Below, piece after piece: positions 275-34,288 of a DNA stretch of 61,703 bases. The number at the start of each line of letters is the position of its first letter. The stretch's first letter is position 1. Position numbers and translations under genes: made by a program. The stretch comes from Acidobacteriota bacterium. Lineage in GTDB: Bacteria > Acidobacteriota > UBA6911 > RPQK01. The DNA lies in assembly GCA_041946865.1 (NCBI GenBank), contig JBHGBF010000008.1:1-61703 (forward strand), read 5' to 3'. The notes beneath the pieces were generated by a model. That model was not told the origin of the DNA. It ran no database searches and was given only the letters and a program-made list of their open reading frames with translations.

Positions 275-895
275 TCAGTCGAGCTTGATTCCCTGCTCGG
301 CCAGCGCCTGACGAACCATGGCGGGGCCTTTCGCGAGGCAGGCCCGCAGGCCCGCATCCAGGGCGGCCGTGACGCACTCGGGGTTGTCGTCGAAGAAGAG
401 CACAGCGGCGGGATCCAGTTGCAAGTCCCGGATGACCCATTGGTAGGCGGAGCGGTCGGGCTTCATGAGACCGATCTCGAACGACGCGTACGACCGGTGG
501 AAACGGGCCACCAGCCCCTGGAGGCCGCTCGCCCTCCAGTGCACGGGATTGTTGTTGGACAGGCAGGCGAGCATGAAGTGGGGCCGAAGCGCGTCGAGCA
601 GCTCAAAACTTCCCGGGAGCGGTCCCCTGTCCCAGGAGCGAAAGGCTTCGAGAAAAGCCTCGGGCGCGAGATCGACTCCAAGCTCCCGCACCACGCCGGC
701 GGCAAAGTCAGCGGGATCACACCGGCCGGTTTCAAAGCGGCGCACCCACTCGGACTCAAGCCAGAACCGCCGGGCCTGTTCCGCAGTAAAACGCCCCCTG
801 GTCAGCGCGATCAGAGGTTCGATTCCGTCCCATTCGACGAGCACGCCACCCAAGTCAAAGAGCAGGCACTCGGGCCTTGCGCTGGTTTGGCTCAT
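275..895 (-). CDS. HAD-superfamily (IA) phosphatase/hydrolase
   Basis: Motif I LLFDLGGVL, motif II LSNN, motif III KP, motif IV FFDDNPE. Confidence 0.9.
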   Translation of the reverse strand: MSQTSARPECLLFDLGGVLVEWDGIEPLIALTRGRFTAEQARRFWLESEWVRRFETGRCDPADFAAGVVRELGVDLAPEAFLEAFRSWDRGPLPGSFELLDALRPHFMLACLSNNNPVHWRASGLQGLVARFHRSYASFEIGLMKPDRSAYQWVIRDLQLDPAAVLFFDDNPECVTAALDAGLRACLAKGPAMVRQALAEQGIKLD

Positions 896-958
896 GGTGG
901 ATTCAGTCTAATCGTGGGGAGGCGTCAAGGACAACATGCGCTCCCAGTCCGCTGACGG

Positions 959-1053
959 TCCGCAAAAAGCGCTGCGCTTGCGGTTCTGTTCAGTTCCCGG
1001 CGGTGGCACGCACCCGACGCGCTCCGCAAAAAACGCTGCGCTTGCGGCTCTGT
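959..1053 (+). repeat. Two tandem copies (959-989, 1023-1053) of a ~31 bp palindromic REP-like unit
   Basis: TCCGCAAAAA(G/A)CGCTGCGCTTGCGG(T/C)TCTGT twice, 64 bp apart; a third, inverted copy lies at 4523-4553. Confidence 0.75.
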
Positions 1054-1063
1054 GGCGCTTTTG

Positions 1064-1123
1064 CTTCATCCTTCATCCTTCATCCTTTCCCTGCGTAGCG
1101 CTTTCGCTTCATCCTTCATCCTT
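1064..1123 (+). repeat. Short heptamer (CTTCATC/TTCATCC) tandem repeats
   Basis: cttcatccttcatccttcatcctt at 1064-1087 and cttcatccttcatcctt at 1107-1123. Confidence 0.75.
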
Positions 1124-1144
1124 CCGCAAGTTCAGGCGGCGTCG

Positions 1145-2194
1145 TCACACGGTGCGGTCGTTAGCCCGTGATTCCCAGTAGTCGAAACTCGGGCCCATCT
1201 TCTTTTTGAGCGGCAGTGTGATCTCGTCCAGCCGGCGGATGACATCGGCCGAAGGTGGCGAGGCAAAGGCTCTCACGTTTTCTATCAGCTGGCGCGCGTT
1301 TCGGGCCCCGGCGAGTGTGCAGGTGACTGCCGGGCGAGCGACGCACCAGGTCAAAGCGAGATTCGAGACGCTGGTGTTCAGCTCCCGGGCGAGGGAGTGA
1401 ATCTTCGACAGCGCCTCTGCCAACTCGCTTTCGGCGCCATTTTCTCCGTGCCGGGCCAGAGACACCTTGCGGCTGTCAAAGTGGCGTGTGCGGCGGCGCA
1501 ACGCCGGCAGTTGATCAAGCGACCGGTACCGGTCGCTCAGAAGGCCCTGCTGAAGCGCCATGTAGCCCACGACCCCGATGCCGCGCCCGGCGCACGCCGG
1601 CAGGATCTCCCACTCGATGGCCCGCGAGACCAGGCTGTACGGAAGCTGGTTGACCGCGATCCCGGCGCCGGTTCGCACCGCCTCGTCCAGCCGCTCGCAC
1701 CCGAAATTGCTGACGCCGATGTAGCGGATCTTGCCCTGGTCGCGTAACCTTGTCAGTTCGGCAAAAACCTCGTCGACCACGGGCGGAATGGTGATGGAGC
1801 GGTCGAACTGATGGATACCTTTCAACGTCAGAGGCCAATGAATCATGTAGAGGTCGATATAATCAGTGCCCAGCCTTTTCAGGCTGGCTTCACAGTGCTC
1901 GGTCACCAGGCCGGGGAAGGCGTTCGAGGGACTGAGCTTCGTCCCGATCACGATCGAGTCCCGCGAAATCCCACGGGTTGCCTGACCGAGCCCGCTTTCA
2001 CTTCGGCCGGCATTGTAGGCCTCGGCCGTATCGAAGTAATTGACACCGAGGTCTACCGCGCAACGCACTACTTCCTCCGCGTCCCTCTGATTCTGCGGAC
2101 CCCAGTAGTCTGCTTCCCCCCCGCCGAAGGACCAGCAGCCGATGCCCAGTTCAGACAGCTTCAGGCCTGTCTTTCCACATTCGCGAATCTGCAT
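1145..2194 (-). CDS. Aldo/keto reductase
   Basis: LGIGCWSFGG, FDTAEAYNAG, GTK, SLKRLGTDYIDLYMIHWP, GKIRYIGVSNF, NQLPYSL. Confidence 0.95.
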   Translation of the reverse strand: MQIRECGKTGLKLSELGIGCWSFGGGEADYWGPQNQRDAEEVVRCAVDLGVNYFDTAEAYNAGRSESGLGQATRGISRDSIVIGTKLSPSNAFPGLVTEHCEASLKRLGTDYIDLYMIHWPLTLKGIHQFDRSITIPPVVDEVFAELTRLRDQGKIRYIGVSNFGCERLDEAVRTGAGIAVNQLPYSLVSRAIEWEILPACAGRGIGVVGYMALQQGLLSDRYRSLDQLPALRRRTRHFDSRKVSLARHGENGAESELAEALSKIHSLARELNTSVSNLALTWCVARPAVTCTLAGARNARQLIENVRAFASPPSADVIRRLDEITLPLKKKMGPSFDYWESRANDRTV

Positions 2195-2315
2195 GAGTAC
2201 CTCCGCTGCGATTCTAGCCGGTTAAAAGAGTCGCCGTGCAGGGTTTTTTTCTGGAAGACCGCGAATCGGATCGGCAAATCCGCGGGACTCATCAGCAACG
2301 GAAGCGCTCCAGAAC

Positions 2316-4496
2316 CTACCTGGCCCCAAACAGGATGATCTTTGCGCCCGGCCCATAGAATTTCGCCTCCAGGAGAGCACGGCCCCTTGAATCGTATCCG
2401 GCCACGGTCACACCGTTATGCCACGATTCCTTCACCACCGGAAGCCGCGTCACATAGCGGAAAGAGGCGGGGAAATAGGGGCCCTTCTGACGCCAGGCGT
2501 TTCGGTAGTTGTAGAAAATGACGACCGCGCCCTTGCCGGTATCAGGATTGATTTTTTCATGGATCTCCGGCGTCCCACCGATCTCGCCGCTGCGAGTGGG
2601 ATAGGCGGCCGTAATATCGTCGCGCACCTGCTTGTATTTCGAAAGCGTCTCGGCGAAACGTCTGGCACCGTCCTCGGAGACAGCAGGCAGGTCCCCCCAG
2701 ATACCGTTCTGACCGAGGATCAGCGACCCGAGGTTGATCCACTGCGAGTATTCCGGATCGTCAGGGAGGTAGTGGGTCATGAAAAGGACCGACGGGATCC
2801 AGCGGTCATAGTCGAGGACCACGCGGGCATTAGCCGCCCGTGCGAGCCCGGGGAAGACCAGCACGTTCGGCCCCATGCCTCCGCCCGGCGCCATTTGAGG
2901 ATCATCGAGCGAGTAGTAGTAGGGCCCGTTGTTGATGATGTAGTACTTGCCGGCCGCCAGGAATCGAAGTCCCACGGCCCGTTCGCCTTCCGTTATGTCG
3001 AAATCCACGATCGCGTCGGGCAGGGCCGCGCTGATCTTCTCGGCGATGCGGGCCATCTGCTCGGGAATCTGGAAGGAGTATGACTGCGCCCGTTCTTCGG
3101 CGGAATTGGCTTTTGTTCCGTGCCCGTGGCCAGCGTCATCACATCCGTACTGATCAAAGGCGTCCCACTTGAAATAGCGCACGCCCAGTTCCCTGCCCAG
3201 CCGGATAAGCTCCTGGGCAAAGGCATCACCAAACCGGCTCACCAGGCACATGACGTAACTTTTTTCGGTCTCCCAGACTTCGGCCGGGCCGTGCGGCCTG
3301 CCGTCGGTGGTCATGATGCAGTCCCGATGGCTCTCGAGTATGCGGCTGCTGACGGCGGCTTTGGATGTAAACCACAAGCCCAGTCTCATCCCGTGCTGAT
3401 CCAGCCGCGCTTTGACCTTCTTCAGACCGTCCGGAAACCGGGTCCTGTCGACGCTCCAGTCTCCCGTCTTGCTGAACCAACCGGCATCCACAACGAACAC
3501 CTCGATGCCCAGGCGATCGGCGGCGTCGATCTCGGCCAACATCCGATCGAGGTTCATGGTGTCCAGGTACTTGCCCTTTTTCCAGTCGTGGTTGCGTTCC
3601 TGAAAATTCCAGGTGTTGTAGAAAATGTACGGCTTCCGGCTCTCCGGATAGACCGCTTGATGCCGGAGCATGAAAGTACGGAAAGCCTGCATGACGGCAA
3701 ACCTAATCCCTTTCACCGCCCCAATCTCCATCCAGACAGTGGCGTACGGATGCTCGACGTTCAGCATCTGACCGGCGTAGTAGTTGCCTTTTACCGCATT
3801 GAGATAGGCGGTTTTGTCCGGTTTCAGCTGGTACTTGAGGTACGCGTCGGGGACCTGCGACCCGTGCTCGTACGCGATAATCAGACTGTCGGCGCTGTTG
3901 CTGGCAATCAGGATCGGACCCATAAGCTTCTGGGCGTTCTCGAAATCGCGCGGCAGCACGGGCACATCGGCGGGCTTGTAAGTGTGCGGAAGCTCGTAAA
4001 ACTCGGAAATCCGGATCTCGGCGACGTCTGGATATCGGGACAGTGAAACACCCAGGTATTCGAGCTGGTCACGGCCGCTTGCCTTGGTCAGCCTGTGAGC
4101 CGTGCGGGAAAGGAGGCGATATTGGAACCGGACGACCGGATTCGAAGGAGGCGCCCTGAAGACAAGCTCAAGCGAAAGGGCCGGATCTTCTTTGAACCGT
4201 CCGGAATAGCGATGTTCAGTGACGCCGTTTGGGAGCGTCGTGGGGCTCGCGATCGGCTGGATCTCTTGAAGCGAGGCAGTCACGAATCGACCGTCGACCT
4301 CGAAGCGCGGCGCCGAAATCTCAAAGGACTGGCCCGAATCCTTGCAGAAGTACCGCCAGAGCACGTTGGGTTGACCGAGCACCTCGACTCTGAGCCGACT
4401 GGTATCAATGGGGCTGATCTGGCCGAAGAGCGATGGCGCGGACAGAATCAGGACGAGAAGACAAAAAGTTTGAGCCGCTGGACTCTTCATAGACAC
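2316..4496 (-). CDS. Secreted alpha-galactosidase-like glycoside hydrolase (GH36/melibiase family)
   Basis: Signal peptide; YNTW, FVVDAGWF...GDW...RFPDGL, GMRLGLW and nucleophile motif YFKWD. Confidence 0.8.
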   Translation of the reverse strand: MSMKSPAAQTFCLLVLILSAPSLFGQISPIDTSRLRVEVLGQPNVLWRYFCKDSGQSFEISAPRFEVDGRFVTASLQEIQPIASPTTLPNGVTEHRYSGRFKEDPALSLELVFRAPPSNPVVRFQYRLLSRTAHRLTKASGRDQLEYLGVSLSRYPDVAEIRISEFYELPHTYKPADVPVLPRDFENAQKLMGPILIASNSADSLIIAYEHGSQVPDAYLKYQLKPDKTAYLNAVKGNYYAGQMLNVEHPYATVWMEIGAVKGIRFAVMQAFRTFMLRHQAVYPESRKPYIFYNTWNFQERNHDWKKGKYLDTMNLDRMLAEIDAADRLGIEVFVVDAGWFSKTGDWSVDRTRFPDGLKKVKARLDQHGMRLGLWFTSKAAVSSRILESHRDCIMTTDGRPHGPAEVWETEKSYVMCLVSRFGDAFAQELIRLGRELGVRYFKWDAFDQYGCDDAGHGHGTKANSAEERAQSYSFQIPEQMARIAEKISAALPDAIVDFDITEGERAVGLRFLAAGKYYIINNGPYYYSLDDPQMAPGGGMGPNVLVFPGLARAANARVVLDYDRWIPSVLFMTHYLPDDPEYSQWINLGSLILGQNGIWGDLPAVSEDGARRFAETLSKYKQVRDDITAAYPTRSGEIGGTPEIHEKINPDTGKGAVVIFYNYRNAWRQKGPYFPASFRYVTRLPVVKESWHNGVTVAGYDSRGRALLEAKFYGPGAKIILFGAR

Positions 4497-4522
4497 CGGA
4501 TGCTACCAGAAAAGCCAGGCGA

Positions 4523-4553
4523 ACAGAGCCGCAAGCGCGACGTTTTTTGCGGA
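4523..4553 (-). repeat. Third copy of the palindromic REP-like unit, in the GH36/gatE divergent intergenic region
   Basis: Reverse complement TCCGCAAAAAACGTCGCGCTTGCGGCTCTGT differs from 1023-1053 only at the palindrome centre. Confidence 0.75.
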
Positions 4554-4629
4554 GCGGCGTCGGTTGCGAACCTCTTCCACGATCCACGCGCCCGTTTGCT
4601 GTAATCTGATTCATGGGATACCTTGACGC

Positions 4630-6618
4630 ATGATGATGGAACGATTCGACTACGAAGCGGCGGGACTGATTTCCGGCCTGGAAGTCCACCAGCAGCTTCT
4701 CACGGAGCACAAGCTCTTCTGTCGCTGCCCCGCGGGGCTGTACACGACGACTCATGACGGGGAGATGCTCCGGCATATGCGGCCGACGCTTTCCGAGCTG
4801 GGTGTCTACGACGGCACTGCCCTGATGGAATTCAAGACGAAGAAGGAGATCATCTACCTCCTCAACCACAAGAACGTGTGCACGTATGAGATGGACGACA
4901 CCCCGCCCTTCCTGGTGAACCAGCAGGCCATCGACATAGCGATCGAGCTCTGCCTGACCATGAACATGGACATCATCGACGAGGTCCACATTGCCCGGAA
5001 ACAGTACCTGGACGGCTCGATCCCCACCGGGTTTCAGCGCACCGCCATCGTGGGAGTCAATGGCTGGCTGCCGTTCCGGGATCGCAGGATCACCATCACC
5101 CATGTATCGGTCGAAGAGGATTCCTGCCGGGAGGTCAGCGATCAAGGCCATCGGATTGTCTGGCGAACCGACCGGCTGGGGATGCCGCTGACGGAAACCG
5201 TGACTGGCCCGGACCTTCGGAGCCCCGATGAAGTGCGGAATGCGATCATGCTGTGTGGACTCGTGGCCCGCAACACGGGCCGGGTGAGGACCGGTATCGG
5301 CGCCAGCCGCCAGGACATCAACGTGAGCGTCCGGGGAGGCAGCCGCGTGGAGATCAAGGGCGTGCCCCGGGCAGGATATGCCGTCAAACTAGTCCACAAC
5401 GAAGCCATCCGTCAGGCGAATCTGCTGAAACTTCGAGACGAAATGCAGGCGCGGGGCTTCCGTGAGGCCAGCCAGATCAGGACTCGCGCCTTCGATGTTT
5501 CCGACATCTTTGCACAGGTCGATATGGGCGCCGTCCGGCGTGCTCTGCAGTCCGGGGGCCGGGTGTTCGCTATACGGACAGAGGGAGTGGCGGGCCTGGC
5601 CCAGTGGCCGACCCAGCCTCATACGCGGTTCCTGGATGAGTTGTCCGGGCGCATTCGGGTTATCGCCTGCCTGGACCAGCCTCCGGTCGTCTTGTCCGAG
5701 GACAGCATGCCCGAATTCCCACACCGGCATAAGGTCATCGAGCGCGTACGCAAGCGTGTCCGGCAAGGAGAGAATGACGACTTTTTTATCGTATTTGGGC
5801 CGGAAGAGGACTGCCGGACCGCGGCCGAAGAAATCCGGATCCGCTTTGGTGAGGCGATCGAGGGTGTGCCCAAAGAGACCCGGCAGGCGCTTTTTGGGGG
5901 ATACACCACCTTCGAGCGCATTCTCCCCGGCCCGGACCGCATGTACCCCGATACCGATTCCCCGCCCAGCCGCATCACTCCGGAACGCGTCGCGGCAGCC
6001 CGGGCCCGGCTTCGCCCGGCTCCATGGGAAAGGATCGCTCGCTACCTCTCCTGGCGAGTCCCCGAGGAGACGGCTCATTACCTGTTGCGTCGCGGCGGGG
6101 CGGAGATTGTCGATACTGTGGTCGAGCACACCGGAGTCGACGGCCTGGTCGCGGCCATCGAAATCGGCCAGCGGGCCAAGGCCCTGGCCCGGGCCGGCAT
6201 CCCCGTCAAGAACCTGGACACGGCTGCCTGGATCGGCATTTTCGATCTGCTGACCGACGGGCGGATCGCCCGGGAAGCGGTCCCTCTGCTGGCAACGGAA
6301 ATGGCGAAACATCCCGGCTTGAGCGCCCAGGAAGCCTGTGCGGCGGCCGGCGTCGCAGCCTTGCCCGAAAGGGAATGGATGGCGCGATTGGACGAGTTGA
6401 CGCTCGATGGGTACCGGAGCCTGAATTGTGACCGGAGTCTTCGGAATCCGCCAGGCCGAACGCTCGAGCGTCCGGCCAACGCCAGGGAAAGCGACAACCT
6501 TGAGAAAGCCGTCCGGTTCCTGGCCGGCAAGGCCATGAAGATGCTCCGCGGAAAGGCGCCGGCACGCGAAGTCGTCGATTATCTGCGCGAGAAACTGGTA
6601 CGAGAGGTGACGCAATGA
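4630..6618 (+). CDS. gatE: Glu-tRNA(Gln) amidotransferase subunit E (archaeal-type)
   Basis: GLEVHQQL..KLFCRCP, RKQYLDGS..GFQRT, EEDSCR, DRLGMPL, RQDINVSVRGGSRVEIKGVP, GAD-like insertion, PGPDRMYPDTD; 662 aa, longer than GatB. Confidence 0.9.
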   Translation: MMMERFDYEAAGLISGLEVHQQLLTEHKLFCRCPAGLYTTTHDGEMLRHMRPTLSELGVYDGTALMEFKTKKEIIYLLNHKNVCTYEMDDTPPFLVNQQAIDIAIELCLTMNMDIIDEVHIARKQYLDGSIPTGFQRTAIVGVNGWLPFRDRRITITHVSVEEDSCREVSDQGHRIVWRTDRLGMPLTETVTGPDLRSPDEVRNAIMLCGLVARNTGRVRTGIGASRQDINVSVRGGSRVEIKGVPRAGYAVKLVHNEAIRQANLLKLRDEMQARGFREASQIRTRAFDVSDIFAQVDMGAVRRALQSGGRVFAIRTEGVAGLAQWPTQPHTRFLDELSGRIRVIACLDQPPVVLSEDSMPEFPHRHKVIERVRKRVRQGENDDFFIVFGPEEDCRTAAEEIRIRFGEAIEGVPKETRQALFGGYTTFERILPGPDRMYPDTDSPPSRITPERVAAARARLRPAPWERIARYLSWRVPEETAHYLLRRGGAEIVDTVVEHTGVDGLVAAIEIGQRAKALARAGIPVKNLDTAAWIGIFDLLTDGRIAREAVPLLATEMAKHPGLSAQEACAAAGVAALPEREWMARLDELTLDGYRSLNCDRSLRNPPGRTLERPANARESDNLEKAVRFLAGKAMKMLRGKAPAREVVDYLREKLVREVTQ

Positions 6619-8039
6619 CGCCCAACTACGAGGAGCGGGACGATCGGTTCCAGGGGTACCGGGGCCGGGCCCGCCAGCTGCTCGAAAGATACAGGATCGG
6701 CGTGTGGAGTGAGGTGGAGCTGAGAAACGACGAGGGGTCCGTTTTCACGGGAGTAGTGCTTCCCCGCAACGAGACAGCAGATCCCTTGCACGTGGTGGTG
6801 AAGCTGACCAACGGCTACAACGTCGGCCTGCACGCCGACCGCATCGTGGCCGCCAGAGAGTTGGGCTATCGCAAGGCGGTCTACAAGATCCCCGAGAAAG
6901 ACTTCCCCTTCGATCCCAAGAAAAAGCAGGTCACACTGCTGGGTACGGGGGGCACCATCGCGTCACGCCTCGATTACCGCACAGGCGCCGTCATTCCGGC
7001 CTTTACACCGGGCGAACTGTACGGGGCGGTTCCGGAATTGGCCGACATCGCCAATTTGTCGACCAAGAAGCTGTTTGGCGTCTTCAGCGAGAACATGGGT
7101 CCGGAACAGTACAAGGCCCTCGCGATCGCCATCGGTGAAGAGATCGAGAAGGGCGTCGACGGGATCGTCATCGGCCACGGCACCGACACGATGAGCCACA
7201 CGGGCGCGATCCTGAGCTTCATGGTGCAGAACAGCCCGGTTCCCATCGTCCTGGTGGGGAGCCAGCGGTCCTCGGACCGGCCCTCCTCGGATGCGGCGCT
7301 CAATCTCATGAACGGCGTCCGGACAGCCGCGGAATGCGACATCGCAGAAGTCGTGCTGTGCATGTTCGGCCCCACCTCCGACAATTACGATCTGCTTCAC
7401 CGGGGGACACGATGCCGCAAGATGCATTCCAGCTACCGGAGCACCTTTCGCACGATCGGGGCAACGCCGCTCGCCATGGTAAGCCCCAAGCCTTACGAGG
7501 ACGGCCGTTACTTCAAATACCTGACCGACGATTTCCTGCCACGGAACAAGTCGCGCAAACCTTTGATCACGCCCGCGTTTGAAGAGAAGGTGACGATCCA
7601 GTACTACTACCCGAACTTCAACCCGGACATTATCGACGCCCTTTCCGGCGCCGGATACCGCGGGATCGTGATTGCTGGAACCGGCTTGGGACACGTGAAC
7701 AAGCCGTTGTACCCTGCCATCCGGCGGGCCATTGAAAAGGGTTTGACGGTGGTCATGACCGTGCAAACGCTCTGGGGATACGCCCAGATGTACGTTTATG
7801 ACACCGGCCGTGACCTGCTCGACCTGGGCATCATTCCGCTCGACAACATGCTCCCCGAAGTCGCCTGCATGAAACTCGCCTGGGTGCTGGGACAGACCGA
7901 CGATCCCAAGCGCATCCGCCACATGCTGACCACGCCGATCAATCACGAGACCACCCCGCGCGAGCCGCACAACGGCTACCTGATCATGCAGGGCGGTTTA
8001 CCCGAGGTCGAGGCGTTCATCGGCCGGCACTGGAAGTGA
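6615..8039 (+). CDS. gatD: Glu-tRNA(Gln) amidotransferase subunit D (asparaginase-fold glutaminase)
   Basis: GatD N-domain (VVKLTNGYNVG), TGGTIASRLDYRTGAV, HGTDTM, GSQRSSDRPSSD, RKMHSS; ATGA overlap with gatE. Confidence 0.92.
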   Translation: MTPNYEERDDRFQGYRGRARQLLERYRIGVWSEVELRNDEGSVFTGVVLPRNETADPLHVVVKLTNGYNVGLHADRIVAARELGYRKAVYKIPEKDFPFDPKKKQVTLLGTGGTIASRLDYRTGAVIPAFTPGELYGAVPELADIANLSTKKLFGVFSENMGPEQYKALAIAIGEEIEKGVDGIVIGHGTDTMSHTGAILSFMVQNSPVPIVLVGSQRSSDRPSSDAALNLMNGVRTAAECDIAEVVLCMFGPTSDNYDLLHRGTRCRKMHSSYRSTFRTIGATPLAMVSPKPYEDGRYFKYLTDDFLPRNKSRKPLITPAFEEKVTIQYYYPNFNPDIIDALSGAGYRGIVIAGTGLGHVNKPLYPAIRRAIEKGLTVVMTVQTLWGYAQMYVYDTGRDLLDLGIIPLDNMLPEVACMKLAWVLGQTDDPKRIRHMLTTPINHETTPREPHNGYLIMQGGLPEVEAFIGRHWK

Positions 8040-9535
8040 TCCACGACGTAACCCCTCAGTTTTTTGTTCGGAGTGTGGCAGCAACGAGGAGAGAGGCCGG
8101 TGGGCTGATCGGCTTGTCGGTCAGCGCGATTATCCTTGGCGCCATTGGCGGGAATATCATCGCAGGCCCCCTGGCCGATCGATTCGGACGCAAGCCGATT
8201 CTGATCGTCACCGCCCTTCTCTTCGCGTTCTGCGCTCTCGGTTGCGCGCTCGCACAAGGAGTCTATTTCTTCATTGTCGCGCGCGTGGTCGGCGGGTTCG
8301 GCGTAGGAATGGCGATCCTGGTCGCTCCCATGTATATCGCCGAGACTTCGCCGCGCAGGCTCCGCGGATTGCTGGTGACGTTCAATCAGCTCAACATCGT
8401 CCTCGGGATCTCCATCGCCTATTTTTCGAACTATTACATACAGCGGACGGTGACCGACACATCCGTTAACTGGCGCTGGATGCTCGGTGTGGGGCTCATA
8501 CCGGCTTTGCTCTACTTCATCCTGCTGTTTGTCGTACCGGAAAGCCCGCGGTGGCTGGTGCGCCGGGAGCGCCAGGCGGATGCGCTGGCCGTGCTCCGGC
8601 GGGTCGGCGGCGACGAACACGCGCAGAGTGAGTTGAGCGAAATCAAGGCGAGTCTCGAAAGCTCTGCCGGCGCACGTTCAGGAAGCGTGGCGCAGGTGTT
8701 CTCCAGGCCGATGAAAACCGTCATGATCATCGGCTTCGGAATCGCCTTTTTCCAGCAGATCACGGGCATCAACGCCATCTTCTACTATGCCCCGATGATC
8801 TTCGAGATGGCAGGCGGCGGCAAAGACGCCGCCTTCATGCAGGCTTCGATCCTGGGACTGACGAATCTGGTCATGACCCTGGTGGCAATGGCCCTGATCG
8901 ACCGGCTGGGGCGCCGTCCTCTGCTGATCATCGGCGCCTCAGGCCTGACCCTCGCCCTGGTCCTTGCCGGGGCCGCCTTCCGGAACGGCTCCTACACCTT
9001 GACGGATTCCGGTCTGGCTGTGGTTCGTCAGGAGATCGCCAAGACCGCGGGAGAAGGCAATGCCGTGCAGGTGTCGGACGGACTAGCCGGTATGACAGGC
9101 GTGACCTACGACAGAGAGGTCCCATTCTTCCGGGCGATCGAGGAGCGGATTGGATCCGCGAACTACAATCAGCACAAGGAGCTGATCGTCAAGAACAGTA
9201 TCAGCATCAACTCCACCCTGGTTCTTATCGGCCTGGTCGTCTACGTTGCCTCGTTTGCCATCTCGCTCGGCCCGGTCATGTGGGCTTTGCTCTCGGAAAT
9301 CTTTCCGAACCGGATCCGCGGTCTCGCGATCTCGATTGTCGGCTTCTGGAATTCGATCGTCAGTTTTTCCGTGGCCACGGTCTTCCCGGTCGAGCTCGAG
9401 CGCCTCGGCTCCAGTATGACCTACTTTATTTATGCCCTGTTCGGTTTCCTGACGATTCTCTTTGTGCTCAGATTCGTGCCGGAAACCAAGGGCAAATCGC
9501 TGGAACAACTTGAGAAAATGCTGGTTCGTGGATAA
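8036..9535 (+). CDS. Sugar porter MFS transporter (first TM helix apparently missing)
   Basis: DRFGRK, PMYIAE, PESPRWL, QQITGINAIFYY, DRLGRR, SEIFPNRIR, PETKGKSLE; lacks the usual TM1 GGxLFGxD motif. Confidence 0.85.
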   Translation: MIHDVTPQFFVRSVAATRREAGGLIGLSVSAIILGAIGGNIIAGPLADRFGRKPILIVTALLFAFCALGCALAQGVYFFIVARVVGGFGVGMAILVAPMYIAETSPRRLRGLLVTFNQLNIVLGISIAYFSNYYIQRTVTDTSVNWRWMLGVGLIPALLYFILLFVVPESPRWLVRRERQADALAVLRRVGGDEHAQSELSEIKASLESSAGARSGSVAQVFSRPMKTVMIIGFGIAFFQQITGINAIFYYAPMIFEMAGGGKDAAFMQASILGLTNLVMTLVAMALIDRLGRRPLLIIGASGLTLALVLAGAAFRNGSYTLTDSGLAVVRQEIAKTAGEGNAVQVSDGLAGMTGVTYDREVPFFRAIEERIGSANYNQHKELIVKNSISINSTLVLIGLVVYVASFAISLGPVMWALLSEIFPNRIRGLAISIVGFWNSIVSFSVATVFPVELERLGSSMTYFIYALFGFLTILFVLRFVPETKGKSLEQLEKMLVRG

Positions 9536-9551
9536 ACAAGAAAAGACGAGG

Positions 9552-10838
9552 ATGAAGATGAAGATCGCCACAATTCTTTCCTTTATCGTCGTATTTGCCC
9601 TTTCGCAGCTCCCGGCGGCGCCCGTCAAAGTCGAGCTGAGACAGACCGACGGGAAATACCGCCTCTGGGTTAACGGCCAGGAGTTCTACGTCAGAGGCGC
9701 CGGCTGCGAGTTCGGAAACATCGAGAAACTGGGTGAGCATGGCGCCAACTCCTTCCGCACCTGGCGGACCGAAAACGGCCGGCAGAGCGGTCAGCAGGTA
9801 CTGGATCGGGCTCAAAAGGCCGGACTGCTCGTCCTCATGGGCTTGGAGCTGATCCCGGAGCGGAAAGGGTTTGACTACAACGATGACGCCGCTGTGGCGC
9901 GCCAGTTTGCCGACATCAAGCAACAGGTGCTGAAGTACAAAGATCACCCGGCGCTGCTTGGCTGGCTGATCGGCAACGAGATGAACCTCCTGTACAAAAA
10001 CCCGAAGGTCTGGGACGCGGTCAACGATGTCGCGAAGTTCATCCATGAGGTTGATCCCAACCACCCGGCGGCCACGGCGCTCGCAGGGATCAGCAAGCAA
10101 GCGGTCGACGAGATCAAGCAGCGCGCGATCGCACTGGACTTCATCACGGTCCAGTTCTACGGCGATATCGTCAACCTGCAGAAGCGCCTCGCCGAGGCGG
10201 GCTGGACCGGGCCCTACCTGGTCACCGAGTGGGGCGCTACCGGGCATTGGGAGGTGCGTACCACCGAGTGGAAGGCGCCGATTGAGGAAACCAGTTCTCA
10301 AAAAGCCAAGGCTTTCGCGGAACGTTACGAAAAAGCCATCATGGCCGATCCCATTCGTTGCCTGGGCTCCTATGTTTTCCTGTGGGGACAGAAACAGGAG
10401 CGGACTCCCACGTGGTACGGCATGTTCACGCAGGCCGGGGAGGAAATGGAGACCGTCGATGTCATGCACAAGATCTGGAACGGAAGCTTCCCGGCCAATC
10501 GGACTCCCCAGGTGAAAAGCATCACGCTCAACGGCAAGAGCGCTTACGATAACGTCCGCGTAAAGCCGGAAGAGCCGATCTCGGCTGTCATCGATGCCGC
10601 GGACCCCGACGGGGACACGATCCAGTACGTCTATGAAATCATGCCTGAAAGCACTGACCTGAAGACAGGAGGCGATTTCGAGACTACCCCGCCGGTCTTG
10701 ACCAGCGTCAAGACTGACAAAGGGACACTCGAGCTGAAGGCGCCCGCGAAGGAAGGCTTCTACCGCCTTTTCTTTTATGCTCGCGACGGCAAAGGACACT
10801 GCGGAACGGGGAACATACCGTTCTTCGTAGGCCGGTAA
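9552..10838 (+). CDS. Secreted clan GH-A glycoside hydrolase, GH158-like/GH2 TIM barrel (putative beta-1,3-glucanase)
   Basis: Signal peptide from ATG 9552; GANSFRTW, WLIGNE (acid/base), YLVTEWG (nucleophile), FLWGQKQERTPTW; C-terminal Ig-like domain; next to GH149. Confidence 0.75.
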   Translation: MKMKIATILSFIVVFALSQLPAAPVKVELRQTDGKYRLWVNGQEFYVRGAGCEFGNIEKLGEHGANSFRTWRTENGRQSGQQVLDRAQKAGLLVLMGLELIPERKGFDYNDDAAVARQFADIKQQVLKYKDHPALLGWLIGNEMNLLYKNPKVWDAVNDVAKFIHEVDPNHPAATALAGISKQAVDEIKQRAIALDFITVQFYGDIVNLQKRLAEAGWTGPYLVTEWGATGHWEVRTTEWKAPIEETSSQKAKAFAERYEKAIMADPIRCLGSYVFLWGQKQERTPTWYGMFTQAGEEMETVDVMHKIWNGSFPANRTPQVKSITLNGKSAYDNVRVKPEEPISAVIDAADPDGDTIQYVYEIMPESTDLKTGGDFETTPPVLTSVKTDKGTLELKAPAKEGFYRLFFYARDGKGHCGTGNIPFFVGR

Positions 10839-10976
10839 TCCCTGGGAGCACAGGCAGCCCGCGCCTGCCCGGCCCGTTTTCGCCATCGACATCGAAAACG
10901 GTCCGGGCAGGCGGCAACCGCCCCGGGTTTCAATCGACCAGGATGCCTCGCGCTTCCAAAGCTTGAGGAATTTCTC

Positions 10977-13900
10977 ATGACGCACTCCATACCCTTGTTC
11001 GCCTGTGACACGCTTCTAAAGTTCTCCTCCTCCCCCGTGGAGGGCGGCTTCGTGGACATCGACGGTGAAGAGTTTTACGCCATCAGGTCCGCCCAGCAGA
11101 TGGCGCCGTTCTTTATGAGCATCGTCAGCGCCTCCGACCACTGGATGTTTATCTCCAGCAACGGCGCCTTGACGGCGGGACGAAAGAACCCCGAACTGGC
11201 TCTGTTTCCCTACTACACGGTCGATAAGATCCACGATTCCGCCGGCGTGACCGGCGCGAACACCATCATCCGCGTGCAGCGGGGTGACAGAGTCTACCTT
11301 TGGGAGCCGTTCTCCGAACCCTTGACCGGCCTGTACCGGAGCGAACGTAACCTGTACAAGAACATTGTCGGGAACAGATTGATCTTTGAAGAGATCAACT
11401 CCGATCTTGACCTGGTTTTCGCCTATGAATGGACCACCAGCGAGAAGTATGGATTCGTCCGCAAAGCCGTGCTGCGCAACTCGTCCCGGGTACCGATCGG
11501 CATAGAACTGCTTGACGGCCTCCAGAACATCCTGCCTCACGGCGTGGACCGGATGATGCAGGCGGACAAGAGCTGCCTGGTCGACGCCTACAAGAAGTCG
11601 GAGCTGGTGCGGGCAACCGGGCTCGGCATTTACCGCCTTAACTCGATTCCAGTGGACCGGGCCGAGCCAAGCGAGTCTCTGAAGGCGAATACGGTCTGGT
11701 CCTGCGGGGCGGACATCAGGCGAAGACTGCTGTCCTCGGCCCAACTCGGGGCGTTTCGAAAAGGGTACCCGGTCGTGGAGGAACACGACATTCGCGGTAA
11801 AAGAGGCGCTTACTTCGTCAACATCGAGAGCACACTGCCTGCTGAAGGCCGGCACACCTGGTACCTGGTCGCCGAGGTCAATCAGACGGCCTCACGCGTC
11901 GCGGCGCTTAACCGGAAGCTGCTTTCAACGGACGGCATTCCGGCCCAGATCGAGGCCGACGTCGGCGAAGGGACCCGGGCTCTCAGGAAAATCGTGGCCA
12001 GCGCAGACGGCCTGCAGCTGACGAATGACCGACTCTCGACCGCCCGGCATTTCGCGAATGTCCTGTTCAACGTCATGCGCGGCGGTATCTTCGACAACGG
12101 GTACGCGGTCTCTCGCCCCGACTTCGAGAAGTTCGTGCGCCGGGCCAGCTCCCAGGTTTATGCCCGGTATCGCCAATGGCTGGCCGGCCTTCCCGATCCG
12201 GTCACCCACAGCCAGTTGATCGACCGCGCTCATGTGACCGGAGACCCGGCTTTGCTGAGAACCTGCCTCGAATACATGCCTTTGACCTTCGGACGCCGGC
12301 ACGGTGACCCGAGCCGGCCGTGGAACCTCTTTTCCATCGAGACTCGCAACGACGACGGCACCAAGGCCCTCAACTACCAGGGCAACTGGCGCGACATTTT
12401 CCAAAACTGGGAAGCGCTGGCCCTGTCCTTCCCCGGCTACGTGGAGGGCATGATCAGCAAGTTCGTGAATGCCTCGACCGCCGACGGATACAACCCCTAC
12501 CGGGTCACACGGGACGGCTTCGACTGGGAGATTCATAACCCCAACGATCCATGGTCGTTTATCGGCTACTGGGGAGACCACCAGACGATTTACCTCTTAA
12601 AGCTCCTCGAGATCTCAGCAAGATACCACCCAGGCCGCCTGCAGGAGCTGTTGGCAAGGCCGATTTTCTCTTACGCCAACGTCCCGTATCGGATCAAAGA
12701 CTACGAATCGGTCCTTAAAGACCCGTATCATTCAATCGATTACGACGAGCATCTCGAGAAACTGATCCAGGAACGGATCCGGGAAAGAGGGGCGGACGGC
12801 AAAGTGATCTGGGGACGGGATGCTCAGGTTTACCTGGTCAACCTGGGAGAGAAACTCCTTGTTTCCATGCTCTCAAAGCTCTCGAACTTCGTTCCGGAAG
12901 GCGGGATCTGGATGAACACCCAGCGGCCTGAATGGAACGATGCCAACAACGCACTGGCCGGTTACGGACTCTCGATGGTCACTCTCTGCTACCTGAGGCG
13001 CTACCTGGAATTCTGTCGGTGGCTCTTCGGCGATTCCGGCTTGACGGAGCTGAGACTCTCGGTTGAAGTCGCTGAAATGCTGGCCGGAATCAGAGCCGTC
13101 CTGTCCGCGCATCGCGGCTTGCTGGCCAAAGGATTTGACTCGAAGAGCCGCAAGCGGGTGCTCGACGAGCTGGGAGAAACCGGGACGGCGTATCGCGGTC
13201 GCATCTACCGCCACGGCTTCTCAGGCGAGCAAATCCCGGTGGCGCTCTCCGACATCACCGACCTTTTCTCGCTGTCCCTTGAGTACACGGACCAGTCCAT
13301 TGCCGCCAACCGCAGACCAGACGGTCTTTATCACTCCTACAACCTGCTGGCGCTTGACGGATCGGATGGCGTCGACGTGGCGCATTTCTACGAGATGCTC
13401 GAGGGCCAGGTTGCCGTGCTGAGCTCGGGATACCTTTCAGCCGCCGACTCGATCGAAGTGCTCGAAGCGCTGCGTAAAAGCACGTTGTTCCGGGAGGACC
13501 AGTACAGCTACATCCTGTATCCGGACCGGCCGGTGGCGCCCTTCATTGACAAGAACAATATTCCGCGTGAAGCCGTTGAGAAGTCCGAGCTCTTAAAGCG
13601 GCTTCTGCGTGACGGCGACACCTCCATCGTGGAGCAAGATGTCAACGGCGTATCCCACTTCAACGGCGCCTTCAGAAATGGGAACGTCCTGTCCGAGGCC
13701 TTGGGACGGTTGGACAAGGCCAGGTACGGTGAGTTGGTCGCCAAAGACAGGCAGTTTGTGCTCGACCTCTATGAAGAGCTCTTTCAACACCGGTTCTTCA
13801 CCGGGCGCTCGGGAAGCTTCTTCAGCTACGAAGGGCTAGGCAGCATTTACTGGCACATGGTGTCGAAACTGCTGCTGGCGGCGGAAGAAGTGTTGGCGGA

Positions 13901-14429
13901 CGCCGTCTCTGCAGGCGAGGCCCAGAACGTGATCGACCGACTACGGGAGCTGTATTTCGACGTGCGCCGTGGCCTGGGCGCGAACAAGAGCCCATCCGAA
14001 TACGGGGCCTTCCCAACCGATCCTTACTCCCATACTCCAAGCCGTTCCGGCGCCCAACAGCCGGGAATGACCGGCCAGGTCAAGGAGGACATTATCGCTC
14101 GCTGGCGCGAGCTGGGTCTGGTGGTCACCCAGGGCCGGATTCACTTCGAAGGCTCGCTCGTCAGAGACGAGGAACTGCTTAAGGAAGCCGCTATTTTCAG
14201 CTACATCGACGCCCAGGGGACCGAACGGACCCTGCCTCTTACCAAGGGGACTCTCGCCTACACCTACTGCCAGATCCCGGTTGTGCTGAAGCGGTCGGGC
14301 AGGGCGCGTTTGCGAATCTCGAAGACCTCGGGCACGACCGAGTTGCAGGGAGCGGCCCTGAGCGCCGAAGACAGCCGAGCCGTGTTCGAGAGAACCGGCG
14401 AGATCCTGAAGATCGAGGTGGAGATCTGA
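10977..14429 (+). CDS. Beta-1,3-glucan phosphorylase (GH149)
   Basis: 1150 aa; PFFMSIVSASDHWMFISSNG, RRHGDPSRPWN, YQGNWRDIFQNWE, QRPEWNDANNAL, EGLGSIYWHMVSKL, AFPTDPYSHTP, QPGMTGQVKED. Confidence 0.85.
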   Translation: MTHSIPLFACDTLLKFSSSPVEGGFVDIDGEEFYAIRSAQQMAPFFMSIVSASDHWMFISSNGALTAGRKNPELALFPYYTVDKIHDSAGVTGANTIIRVQRGDRVYLWEPFSEPLTGLYRSERNLYKNIVGNRLIFEEINSDLDLVFAYEWTTSEKYGFVRKAVLRNSSRVPIGIELLDGLQNILPHGVDRMMQADKSCLVDAYKKSELVRATGLGIYRLNSIPVDRAEPSESLKANTVWSCGADIRRRLLSSAQLGAFRKGYPVVEEHDIRGKRGAYFVNIESTLPAEGRHTWYLVAEVNQTASRVAALNRKLLSTDGIPAQIEADVGEGTRALRKIVASADGLQLTNDRLSTARHFANVLFNVMRGGIFDNGYAVSRPDFEKFVRRASSQVYARYRQWLAGLPDPVTHSQLIDRAHVTGDPALLRTCLEYMPLTFGRRHGDPSRPWNLFSIETRNDDGTKALNYQGNWRDIFQNWEALALSFPGYVEGMISKFVNASTADGYNPYRVTRDGFDWEIHNPNDPWSFIGYWGDHQTIYLLKLLEISARYHPGRLQELLARPIFSYANVPYRIKDYESVLKDPYHSIDYDEHLEKLIQERIRERGADGKVIWGRDAQVYLVNLGEKLLVSMLSKLSNFVPEGGIWMNTQRPEWNDANNALAGYGLSMVTLCYLRRYLEFCRWLFGDSGLTELRLSVEVAEMLAGIRAVLSAHRGLLAKGFDSKSRKRVLDELGETGTAYRGRIYRHGFSGEQIPVALSDITDLFSLSLEYTDQSIAANRRPDGLYHSYNLLALDGSDGVDVAHFYEMLEGQVAVLSSGYLSAADSIEVLEALRKSTLFREDQYSYILYPDRPVAPFIDKNNIPREAVEKSELLKRLLRDGDTSIVEQDVNGVSHFNGAFRNGNVLSEALGRLDKARYGELVAKDRQFVLDLYEELFQHRFFTGRSGSFFSYEGLGSIYWHMVSKLLLAAEEVLADAVSAGEAQNVIDRLRELYFDVRRGLGANKSPSEYGAFPTDPYSHTPSRSGAQQPGMTGQVKEDIIARWRELGLVVTQGRIHFEGSLVRDEELLKEAAIFSYIDAQGTERTLPLTKGTLAYTYCQIPVVLKRSGRARLRISKTSGTTELQGAALSAEDSRAVFERTGEILKIEVEI

Positions 14430-14525
14430 CAGGTCCGAGATTCCAGCGAGCCGCCAGCCTGTATCCTTATCGTAAAACTCGATAAAATCGTTTCTGCTCG
14501 CGCCGCTCTGGGAGGTTCGCAAATC

Positions 14526-14831
14526 TTGGACTTCGATCAGCCGGCCCTTCTCGAGGAAGCTACGCTTTACCTTCGCCGCAAGGCCTGCCTCATGAACCCT
14601 GACCTTAAACTGGAAGGCGGGGCCGATCTCTTCGGGAATCAGTTCTTCCTGTTTTCCCTTACAGTACCAGGGTGGGGGGAGTTCTGGCTGGTTCGCGGTC
14701 CTCAGGGTTACGGGCTGTACGACCAGAAGGAGGTGCCTGACGTCGGCGAGGTGATCCTCGAACACTACGGCAGCCGCGGCACCGACCTGGAAGCCAGGCT
14801 CGCGGCCCATTTCTCGGGTCGAACGAAGTGA
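14526..14831 (+). CDS. Hypothetical protein
   Basis: 101-aa ORF with host-like codon usage filling the gap; no recognised motif. Confidence 0.55.
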   Translation: MDFDQPALLEEATLYLRRKACLMNPDLKLEGGADLFGNQFFLFSLTVPGWGEFWLVRGPQGYGLYDQKEVPDVGEVILEHYGSRGTDLEARLAAHFSGRTK

Positions 14832-14950
14832 AGCCGCCACGATCCAGAATGTTCCTATCCTCACGTTCTCGAATTTCAATGCGGCGGTCGGGCCTGGGTG
14901 TGATTCAAACCCATTGCGGGCGTGAGAACCAACGTTCCTGCGGCGTCTTA

Positions 14951-15230
14951 CGCCCCTTCAGGGCTTGTCGTGGGAACGACCCCTGGAACCCGGGCCTGCG
15001 CAAGAAGCGCTGCGGTTTGGGCTAATAACTCTCGGCCTCCCAGGCCGAGGAGTCCGGTCTTTCAAGTAGAAGCAGTCGGCACGGATGTGTATTTTCGCCA
15101 AAGTCCAGGCCTTTCAGGCCGAGGAGTTGGAGGTTTTTGGGGACCTCCAACGGAAGACTGAGAAGGTGTGAGAAGACCCGTGAGGCGGTGATGCTGTTTT
15201 CGGCCTGAAAGGCCCTGGACTTTGGCGAAA
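14951..15230. repeat. Composite REP/MITE-like palindrome cluster
   Basis: GCCCCTTCAGGGC and CTCGGCCTCCCAGGCCGAG hairpins; ~30 bp inverted repeat 15093-15122/15200-15230 enclosing hairpin GTTGGAGGT..ACCTCCAAC (15126-15151). Confidence 0.7.
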
Positions 15231-15292
15231 GTAACAGATGAATCAACAGGAACCGCCGCTGTGTGGCTGTATCACGCTGAAAGCGTGAAGCA

Positions 15293-34083: not shown

Positions 34084-34288
34084 CCGATTTGACGTTGCCT
34101 GGCCTCGGCACCATAATTGGTTCAAGTAGAGGGCCGCGACTCTCGCGGGTCCGCACTTGAACGGCTTCCCAGGCCACGGTCGCACATTTTGGGTTCGTTT
34201 TGTCAGAACCAGCGATCCTCTCGCTCCGTTATACCGCACGCGAATTCAGGTTCAAAGCGAAACAAAAACGCTGGTGAGGAGGAAGCAT

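Follow-up and report, generated by a model that had tools for sequence, protein, structure and literature searches.

A gatE-gatD operon in an Acidobacteriota genome and the bacterial clade of GatDE amidotransferases to which it belongs

A gene pair coding for the two subunits of a GatDE-type tRNA-dependent amidotransferase was found at positions 4630-8039 of contig JBHGBF010000008.1, from the genome assembly GCA_041946865.1 of an Acidobacteriota bacterium. The window analyzed here is the whole of this 61.7-kb contig (61,703 nucleotides), and the assembly from which it comes comprises 6.29 Mb in 401 contigs, with an estimated completeness of 96% and an estimated contamination of 3.67%. The locus codes for genuine GatE and GatD, not for GatB or an ordinary asparaginase. 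Taken alone, the family membership of these proteins, the integrity of their genes, the selection acting on them, their residence in the genome, the bacterial clade that they belong to, and the distribution of that clade are points of which we are highly confident. The fuller reading, in which the pair would make a working heterodimeric GatDE of a large bacterial branch, with the substrate, the role, and the acquisition from within the phylum that are proposed below, is one that we consider fairly probable.

Gene identity, integrity, and selection

The gatE gene (4630-6618, plus strand) codes for the tRNA-binding kinase/amidotransferase subunit, a 662-amino-acid protein in which a cradle domain with an AspRS-like insertion is followed by a helical domain and a YqeY-like tail, and the gatD gene (6615-8039, plus strand) codes for a 474-amino-acid asparaginase-type glutaminase subunit with a GatD-specific N-terminal domain. 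Direct reading of the sequence gave two uninterrupted open reading frames (ORFs) that overlap by four bases, an ATGA at 6615-6618 on the plus strand in which the ATG of gatD begins at 6615 and the TGA of gatE occupies 6616-6618. This overlap, an arrangement of translational coupling, is common to the genome of a second species of the same genus (G001). The GatE translation holds GLEVHQQ, EEDSCR, and RMYPDTD, the GatD translation holds TGGTIAS, HGTDT, and SQRSSDR, and the Thr-containing active-site motifs of GatD are present (TGGTIAS, HGTDT, and SQRSSDRPSSDA). The guanine-plus-cytosine (GC) content is 0.631 for gatE and 0.612 for gatD, and the window as a whole has 0.598 and the genome 0.597. 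A preliminary description of this DNA, made from its letters alone, had proposed an intact and translationally coupled gatE-gatD pair carrying these six hallmark motifs, at a GC content similar to that of its neighbors and in a diderm bacterial host, and all of this was borne out.

Both proteins were compared with family models and with chains of known structure. GatE passed the cut-offs of two NCBIfam equivalogs, with 502.9 bits for NF003107 (cut-off, 456) and 423 bits for TIGR00134 (cut-off, 319.55), and missed every GatB model by far, its best score there being 136.5 bits against a cut-off of 338. The corresponding scores for GatD were 472.3 bits for NF003217 (cut-off, 310) and 470.5 bits for TIGR02153 (cut-off, 324). 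Among the PDB chains, GatE was aligned with Pyrococcus abyssi GatE (1zq1_C) over residues 2-590 (335 bits) plus residues 627-656, and with the GatE of Methanothermobacter thermautotrophicus at 301 bits; GatB chains were matched only over residues 91-281, at 78 bits or less. GatD matched archaeal GatD chains at 373 bits (2d6f_A, M. thermautotrophicus) and 360 bits, and plain asparaginases at no more than 129 bits. Its Pfam domains are GatD_N (PF18195), Asparaginase (PF00710), and Asparaginase_C (PF17763). In GatE, the 277 profile positions of GatB_N are stretched over residues 15-452, which indicates a large insertion within the catalytic domain, and a weak GatB_Yqey match lies at residues 625-656. 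The window GatE also keeps 55 of the 55 columns that are invariant across an alignment of 21 diverse GatE proteins; these columns include E18/H20, E162/E163, E189, R227/D229/N231/S233, and R437/Y439/T442/D443, among which are presumably the residues that bind Mg and ATP. The identification of the two proteins as true GatE and GatD, made in the preliminary description, is therefore upheld by the equivalog cut-offs, the PDB matches, and the GatE tree described below, and neither the scores nor the structures nor that tree gave the grouping with GatB and ordinary asparaginase that would have spoken for a different identity.

The window proteins resemble archaeal GatDE (2D6F from M. thermautotrophicus and 1ZQ1 from P. 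abyssi) in having two subunits, all of the domains, the invariant residues, the short basic loop, and scores at the equivalog level, and they differ from it in that the window genes form an overlapping gatE-gatD operon. With bacterial GatCAB, they share the cradle and tail folds that GatE and GatB have in common, as well as the same overall reaction. Unlike GatCAB, in which the amidase GatA supplies the ammonia, GatDE uses the asparaginase homologue GatD as donor and has no GatC, and GatE, which scores far under the GatB cut-off, is set apart by its AspRS-like insertion and by the absence of a 3-10 turn region.

Selection on the locus was estimated by comparing the window with G001. The ratio of nonsynonymous to synonymous substitution rates (dN/dS) was 0.065 for gatE (640 codons), 0.068 for gatD (the 205 codons available), and 0.090 for the flanking glycoside hydrolase (GH) gene; the dS values, 1.75 for gatE and 1.66 for the GH gene, are similar, and both are near saturation. 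These results demonstrate that gatED has been under strong purifying selection since the split of the two species.

Phylogeny and distribution of bacterial GatDE

Passages of PMC2811023, PMC8007984, and PMC9499178 state that GatDE occurs in archaea only, and PMC9499178 refers to Sheppard and Söll 2008 for scenarios of LUCA (the last universal common ancestor) that are built on this premise. When the window GatE was searched against a library of representative proteins, 618 proteins were matched at an E value of 1e-30 or less, and their identity to it fell in one step from 42-59% to 30-38%. Where its members are named, the lower-identity group is archaeal, including Heimdallarchaeota (P0162), Thorarchaeota (P0186), Odinarchaeota (P0188), Thermoprotei (P0173), Ignisphaera (P0183), and Parvarchaeota (P0178), and the identity of the window GatE to archaeal GatE representatives is approximately 30 to 38%.

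In a FastTree phylogeny of 226 GatE and 5 GatB sequences, all of the named bacterial loci fell in one clade of approximately 145 rows. A second tree was inferred with IQ-TREE under LG+C20+F+G4 with posterior mean site frequencies (PMSF) from 80 hand-picked rows (43 bacterial, 34 archaeal-like, and 3 GatB) and 634 columns. There, the 43 bacterial GatE rows formed one clade, with a support of 100 in the Shimodaira-Hasegawa-like approximate likelihood ratio test (SH-aLRT) and a stem of 0.38; a Heimdallarchaeota sequence was sister to this clade (98), two further sequences joined next (88), and the other 29 archaeal rows formed one clade (99). The GatB outgroup was set apart by a branch of 1.44 with a support of 100, and the FastTree on 231 rows gave the same split. 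The window GatE thus groups with GatE and not with GatB, in a bacterial clade separate from the archaeal sequences, and the monophyly of bacterial GatE is solid. The bacterial branch may derive from Asgard-like archaea or may be sister to all archaeal GatE, as an alternative tree with all archaeal rows together and the bacteria and GatB opposite was only 4.2 log-likelihood units worse and was not rejected by the approximately unbiased (AU) test, run with the PMSF site frequencies (p = 0.436).

Within the bacterial clade, the GatE proteins of the window and of G001 stood together (99), inside a five-row clade (100) with sequences from Holophagaceae and from family f48, which belong to another class, and GatE from the window's own class (family f17) was placed elsewhere in the tree. 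Of the 41 nearest relatives of the window genome, only 2 carry GatE. This sparse occurrence, together with the nesting beside Holophagae and the distant position of the f17 sequences, points to a transfer by which the window's genus received the pair from inside the phylum; this genus probably acquired gatED from a Holophagae-like acidobacterium before the split of the two sampled carrier species. An old transfer between domains had been proposed for the window copy. The copy nests in an all-bacterial clade next to Holophagae, which argues against a direct import from archaea; any archaeal link would be old, at the base of the bacterial clade, and in view of the AU result even that is no more than possible.

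The distribution of this clade was examined in protein and genome collections. A protein search gave at least 120 GatE proteins at 68-89% identity to that of the window, and the named matches were from Acidobacteria, Thermoanaerobaculia, and Holophaga, with a few from Planctomycetes, Deltaproteobacteria, and Firmicutes bins; the search also matched Mesoterricola silvestris and M. sediminis, on contigs of 4.99 and 4.52 Mb. A scan with one genome per species gave at least 597 GatE loci, and the best 80 were all bacterial. These 80 include loci from Holophagaceae, Aminicenantes, and Thermoanaerobaculia; from Bacteroidales (with the isolate Perlabentimonas gracilis), Rhodothermaceae, Ignavibacteria, Melioribacteraceae, and Kapaibacteria; from Planctomycetota, Phycisphaerae, Myxococcota, Bdellovibrio, Calditrichota, and Cloacimonetes; and from Fermentibacteria, Aegiribacteria, Zixibacteria, Krumholzibacteria, and Gemmatimonadetes. 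Even sampling of Acidobacteriota showed GatE in 65 of 401 genomes (16%) and in 44 of 228 genera, tallies that take in three unpublished genomes (G007, G063, and G182), which are all GatE negative and on which no other result depends. The assignment of the sampled phylum to Acidobacteriota agrees with a genome of this phylum whose GatE is identical to one from Holophaga sp. and with the acidobacterial origin of the closest named proteins. Whole families carried it (8/8 genomes of f36, 3/3 of f27, and 3/3 of f33). In a sample of Bacteroidota the count was 7 of 131 genomes, which includes the center genome, chosen for having GatE. The remark in the preliminary description that scattered bacterial annotations might exist was right as to their existence and understated their number, since they run to hundreds, some of them in isolates whose genomes are complete.

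In most of 111 bacterial loci, gatE precedes gatD on one strand. Among 838 crudely called genes of 80 named loci, a set in which genes of high-GC loci may be missed, no neighbor recurred beside gatED: gatE was found in 71 loci and gatD in 66, and the next cluster, a LytTR-type response regulator, in 8. The program aragorn called seven tRNAs in the same 80 loci, none of them recurrent; one of these calls, a "tRNA-Pyl(cta)" in a Holophagaceae bin (L055:4188-4263), approximately 60 bases upstream of gatE, is probably false.

A full-text literature search found no paper describing bacterial GatDE; subscription journals were thinly covered by it, and an earlier mention is possible. In the literature searched, a bacterial GatDE lineage is not described and is in places denied, and automatic annotation already names the proteins. 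GatDE is a common bacterial gene, found in 16% of the sampled Acidobacteriota and in isolates with complete genomes. Because it is common in bacteria, forms one clade there, is under selection, and occurs almost always beside GlnRS and AsnRS and often where GatCAB is missing, the evolutionary argument that takes it to be archaeal must change. A position of the bacterial clade as sister to all archaeal GatDE or to Asgard GatDE would, if true, reopen the question of which amidotransferases LUCA and the first bacteria had. The interest of the finding rests more on the clade that it reveals than on the single locus.

Pathway genes, substrate, and role

The host differs from an archaeal GatDE carrier in its pathway genes and in its tRNA. 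The window genome has matches above cut-off to gatB (591.6 bits), gatA (644.8 bits), asnS (478 bits), and glnS (772.2 bits; cut-off, 425.8), and gatC (71.6 bits, also above cut-off) lies just upstream of gatA. Two genes for AsnB-type synthetases are present, as are two full GluRS paralogues, one of which is nearest to Thermotoga maritima GluRS1 and the other to chain 8i9i and then to T. maritima GluRS2. Aragorn called 36 tRNAs in the genome. Both of the tRNA(Gln) genes found, with CTG and TTG anticodons, have the U1-A72 pair and G73 of the bacterial type, and no tRNA(Gln) of the archaeal type (A1-U72) was present among the 36 assembled tRNAs. The proposal that GatDE had replaced the Gln-tRNA route in this bacterium, with an adapted tRNA(Gln), is contradicted by these findings: GlnRS, AsnRS, and all three GatCAB subunits are encoded, and the 1-72 pair that would mark an archaeal-style sole route is absent from the tRNA(Gln) genes. 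Since GlnRS, AsnRS, and GatCAB are all present, GatDE is an extra route here and not the only one. Among the other tRNA calls were a tRNA-SeC and a "tRNA-Glu(ttc)" of 96 bases (G000:C46:4392-4487), whose extra arm is very long and which may be a false positive.

We compared the presence of GatE with that of the other enzymes across the 401 Acidobacteriota genomes. GatB was found in 305 genomes of the whole sample and in 24 of the 65 GatE carriers, GlnRS in 280 and 61, respectively, and AsnRS in 386 and 63. Put the other way, 41 of the 96 genomes without GatB carry GatE, compared to 24 of the 305 with GatB, and in family f36 all eight genomes have GatE and none of the eight has GatB. GatCAB and GatDE therefore tend to exclude each other in this phylum. 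All 41 of the GatB-less carriers have both direct synthetases. The four carriers that lack GlnRS all have GatB (three are from family f33, and one is only 75% complete), and both carriers that lack AsnRS have GatB as well. The cross-table was made by hand, its counts are per genome, and its absences come from draft genomes; no statistical test was applied to the co-occurrence because related genomes are not independent.

The chemistry of the window enzyme is almost certainly of the GatDE type. By homology to the archaeal enzyme, GatD would hydrolyze glutamine or asparagine and release ammonia, the ammonia would reach GatE by a tunnel, and GatE, consuming ATP, would phosphorylate the side chain of a mischarged tRNA's amino acid at its carboxyl group. 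The substrate would most likely be glutamate carried by the U1-A72 tRNA(Gln) of the host, whose amidation would give Gln-tRNA(Gln), and the role would most likely be that of a second amidotransferase, which would clear or use the Glu-tRNA(Gln) that a GluRS with relaxed specificity produces.

Several points weigh against this proposal. Where GlnRS is present, we know of no need for the amidation of Glu-tRNA(Gln). The choice of Glu-tRNA(Gln) with a bacterial acceptor end as the most likely substrate, and of Asp-tRNA(Asn) as a less likely one, is itself drawn from homology and gene content. The assembled tRNA set of the host is incomplete, as tRNA(Asn) and tRNA(Asp) are missing from it. The partial exclusion of GatE and GatB would also fit the take-over of a job in asparagine supply, and the exact right-hand neighbor of gatED is less certain, because the right junction lies in a high-copy repeat, the gene that follows is truncated, and an independent contig diverges there. 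Passages of PMC9499178 describe archaeal GatDE as reading the A1-U72 pair, which the host tRNA(Gln) does not have. Finally, a proxy for relaxed GluRS specificity failed. We scored the column of a "discriminating Arg," for which we assumed the residue numbers, in 60 GluRS proteins from 46 genomes. At this column, T. maritima GluRS1 has R, Thermosynechococcus elongatus GluRS has G, and GluRS-a of the window genome has H380; Arg was found in 20 of 22 GluRS proteins of GatE-only genomes. However, four of six GlnRS-less control genomes, which must have a nondiscriminating enzyme, have a single GluRS of the Arg type, and no conclusion can therefore be drawn from the proxy.

A tie between GatDE and a second GluRS copy was likewise rejected, as 15 of 19 GatE-only genomes have a single gltX match. 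Three further observations on GluRS were made. The host paralogue at G000:C318 (L005:388-1914, minus strand) has His in the discriminating-Arg column, and the other paralogue has Arg. The glnS gene adjoins gltX in many genomes of the phylum (G056:C2, G088:C6, G378:C205, G083:C45, G095:C1, G057:C11, and G302:C6). In some GluRS proteins of the phylum (in G128, G152, G110, and G298, with ORFs of 528-634 amino acids), the match to the bacterial gltX model is confined to the N-terminal half of the model, which suggests a divergent anticodon-binding domain.

The strongest alternative, which we consider unlikely, is that bacterial GatDE took over a residual job of GatCAB and amidates Asp-tRNA(Asn), for tRNA-dependent asparagine synthesis as in Thermus and Deinococcus, instead of or besides Glu-tRNA(Gln). 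The exclusion of GatB and GatE, complete in family f36, speaks for this alternative, and bacterial tRNA(Asn) and tRNA(Gln) both have the U1-A72 pair. In a set of 45 genomes, AsnB-type synthetase was present in 11 of the 11 genomes with neither GatB nor GatE, and all nine AsnB-less genomes carry an amidotransferase (GatB in five and GatDE only in four). One of the latter four has AsnA; the other three (G057, G196, and G232, which are 99, 95, and 95% complete) lack AsnA too. In some lineages, therefore, Asn-tRNA(Asn) might conceivably come from GatDE. On the other side, AsnB is present in 15 of the 19 GatE-only genomes and AsnA in a further one, the window genome has its two AsnB genes and a full GatCAB, and all of these counts are per genome, from dependent kin, with absences from drafts. 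In passages of PMC8007984 and PMC9499178, archaeal GatDE is described as specific for Glu-tRNA(Gln). Asparagine supply is not the general role of GatDE, nor is it the role in the window genome.

We also considered whether the bacterial branch keeps the GatDE chemistry and acts on a new substrate, for example another acyl-tRNA or a tRNA-like RNA, a possibility that we rate as improbable. The elements of GatE that read the tRNA bear on this. Passages of PMC2811023 place a 3-10 turn in bacterial GatB where GatE has a short basic loop; the window GatE has a loop of archaeal GatE length, and GatB is longer there. This loop, beside the 1-72 pair at the acceptor end, carries substitutions specific to the bacterial clade. 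Position 220 is R in 139 of 144 bacterial sequences and K in 48, R in 13, and Q in 12 of 82 archaeal ones. At position 221, 87 of the 144 bacterial sequences have T, as does the window GatE, and 46 have R, compared to R in 78 of the 82 archaeal sequences, and position 225 is A in 114 of the bacterial and T or S in 78 of the archaeal sequences. The tail core LMG..M..RG..G is kept in GatE. The GXXAXGX motif is loose in both sets, in a region of uncertain alignment: its first G is found in 23/144 bacterial and 40/82 archaeal sequences, and at its sixth position 69/144 bacterial sequences have R and 20/82 archaeal ones have G. When conservation is scaled to that of the catalytic core, bacterial GatE is looser than archaeal GatE in its helical and tail domains, with top-residue frequencies of 0.35 and 0.39, respectively, over 0.72 for the core in bacteria and of 0.41 and 0.46 over 0.61 in archaea. 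Across bacterial phyla (111 loci), identity to the window proteins was 59-95% for GatD and 39-84% for GatE, and the glutaminase subunit is thus apparently far more constrained than the tRNA-binding one. These shifts in the loop and domains fit a changed read-out of the tRNA and prove nothing.

A new substrate would be in keeping with those clade-specific changes at positions 221 and 225, with the looser helical and tail domains and the greater divergence of GatE than of GatD, with the stem of 0.38 between the bacterial clade and the archaeal sequences, and with an enzyme that is dispensable for aminoacyl-tRNA supply, given GlnRS in 61 and AsnRS in 63 of the 65 carriers. Against it stand the retention of all family-invariant residues and of the four GatE domains and the lack of a conserved partner gene or tRNA beside gatED in the 80 loci, and no positive evidence for any other substrate was found.

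Amidation of Glu-tRNA(Gln) by a second amidotransferase, our preferred reading, has a partial parallel in known bacteria. According to PMC4206432, Thermus, Deinococcus, and Bdellovibrio retain GatCAB together with GlnRS and AsnRS, and most bacterial GatDE carriers likewise keep an amidotransferase with both direct synthetases. The cases differ in that the enzyme there is GatCAB with a known role, asparagine synthesis, and that here it is GatDE with a proposed role. A wider proposal, which we put forward tentatively and hold to be somewhat less probable than not, is that GatDE is not an archaeal signature and that a deep monophyletic bacterial lineage of it, adapted to U1-A72 tRNAs, extends over Acidobacteriota, Bacteroidota/Ignavibacteria, Planctomycetota, Myxococcota, and other phyla, where it would stand in for GatCAB beside GlnRS and AsnRS, either in tRNA-dependent amide synthesis or in clearing mischarged tRNA. 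The biochemical question that this raises is what task a tRNA-dependent amidotransferase has where none is needed, and the cultured carriers (Mesoterricola and Perlabentimonas gracilis) make the question of its role testable.

Genomic neighborhood and residence in the genome

The residence of gatED in this genome was examined through a related genome, sequencing depth, and the repeats that bracket the two genes. In G001, which was assembled independently, a haloacid dehalogenase (HAD) gene, the melibiase-like GH gene, gatE, and the 5' part of gatD lie on one contig, and the major facilitator superfamily (MFS) porter gene, a GH-like ORF, and the GH149 phosphorylase gene lie on another; the gene order is like that of the window, at 71-80% nucleotide identity. 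In G002, a third species of the genus (92% complete), no gatE was found, and matches to window positions 315-874 and 15323-16998 lie only approximately 1.85 kb apart. This spacing indicates that a block of approximately 14.4 kb (window positions of approximately 900-15300), which holds an aldo-keto reductase gene, the GH gene, gatED, the MFS gene, the GH-like ORF, and the GH149 gene and is missing from G002, is present or absent as a unit.

Depth was taken from Logan contigs of one public soil-metagenome run, which may be the source of the assembly. It was 343 over 3800-4552, 386 over 4523-8073 (all of gatED), and 366 from 8103 onward, and was thus equal over the left flank, gatED, and the right flank. 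These pieces meet inside short repeats, the left join being at 4523-4552, and unitigs do not bridge the edges of gatED because both edges lie in such repeats. At the left edge is a REP-like short host repeat (REP, repetitive extragenic palindromic; 4520-4582) with 40 hits in 32 contigs of its own genome. It is related to the family of an intergenic repeat at 935-1060, which has 277 hits in 116 contigs, and is present at many places in G001. At the right edge, directly after the gatD stop, is a high-copy host repeat of 56 bases (8047-8102) with 120 hits in 106 contigs, often at contig ends of its own assembly; the depth bin over it is 327008 (597 records), and the join to the MFS gene passes through it. 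The 935-1060 and 4520-4582 families recur in G001, and all three families are often found at contig ends. They look like REP- or MITE-like elements (MITE, miniature inverted-repeat transposable element) that fragment the assembly.

The right junction is less firm than the left. The MFS sugar porter ORF (8036-9535; XylE-like, 345 bits) lacks approximately 50 N-terminal residues of its G001 orthologue, and its apparent start crosses the repeat and overlaps the gatD stop. The Logan contig that carries the MFS gene continues for 230 bases to the left of 8103 in a sequence unlike the window. The contig may have a small deletion or be locally misjoined at 8.05-8.10 kb, with gatED itself untouched.

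That gatED is an artefact, either a contaminant from an archaeon or another organism or part of a chimera joined at approximately 4.5 or 8.0 kb, as the preliminary description had allowed for, is largely refuted and very improbable: the unbridged repeats at both edges, the truncated MFS gene with its divergent Logan contig, and the contamination estimate of 3.67% would permit it, and they are outweighed by the left junction and gene order repeated in G001, the equal depth over the three pieces, bracketing repeats that are specific to the window genome, a GC content matching that of the genome, and nearest protein relatives that are acidobacterial and not archaeal.

The direct neighbors of gatED are sugar-use genes, namely, those for the melibiase-like GH, the MFS sugar porter, the GH-like ORF, and a GH149 beta-1,3-glucan phosphorylase. 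The last of these is an ORF of 1,150 amino acids (10977-14429) that has no Pfam match and scores 1656.8 bits against the NCBIfam GH149 model (cut-off, 1150). A setting among TonB receptor, outer-membrane barrel, and lipoprotein genes had been described earlier; this does not hold for the immediate neighbors, and a barrel of the TonB-like receptor kind is present on the contig approximately 26 kb downstream (34157-37843), with CarboxypepD_reg and OMP_b-brl_4 domains of an outer-membrane receptor (617.6 bits). Elsewhere in the window are a BTAD/AAA-type regulator (20634-23897), a 1,422-amino-acid RHS-repeat protein (25631-29899), and a protein resembling nitrous oxide reductase that has propeller repeats and a cupredoxin domain (49356-51278).

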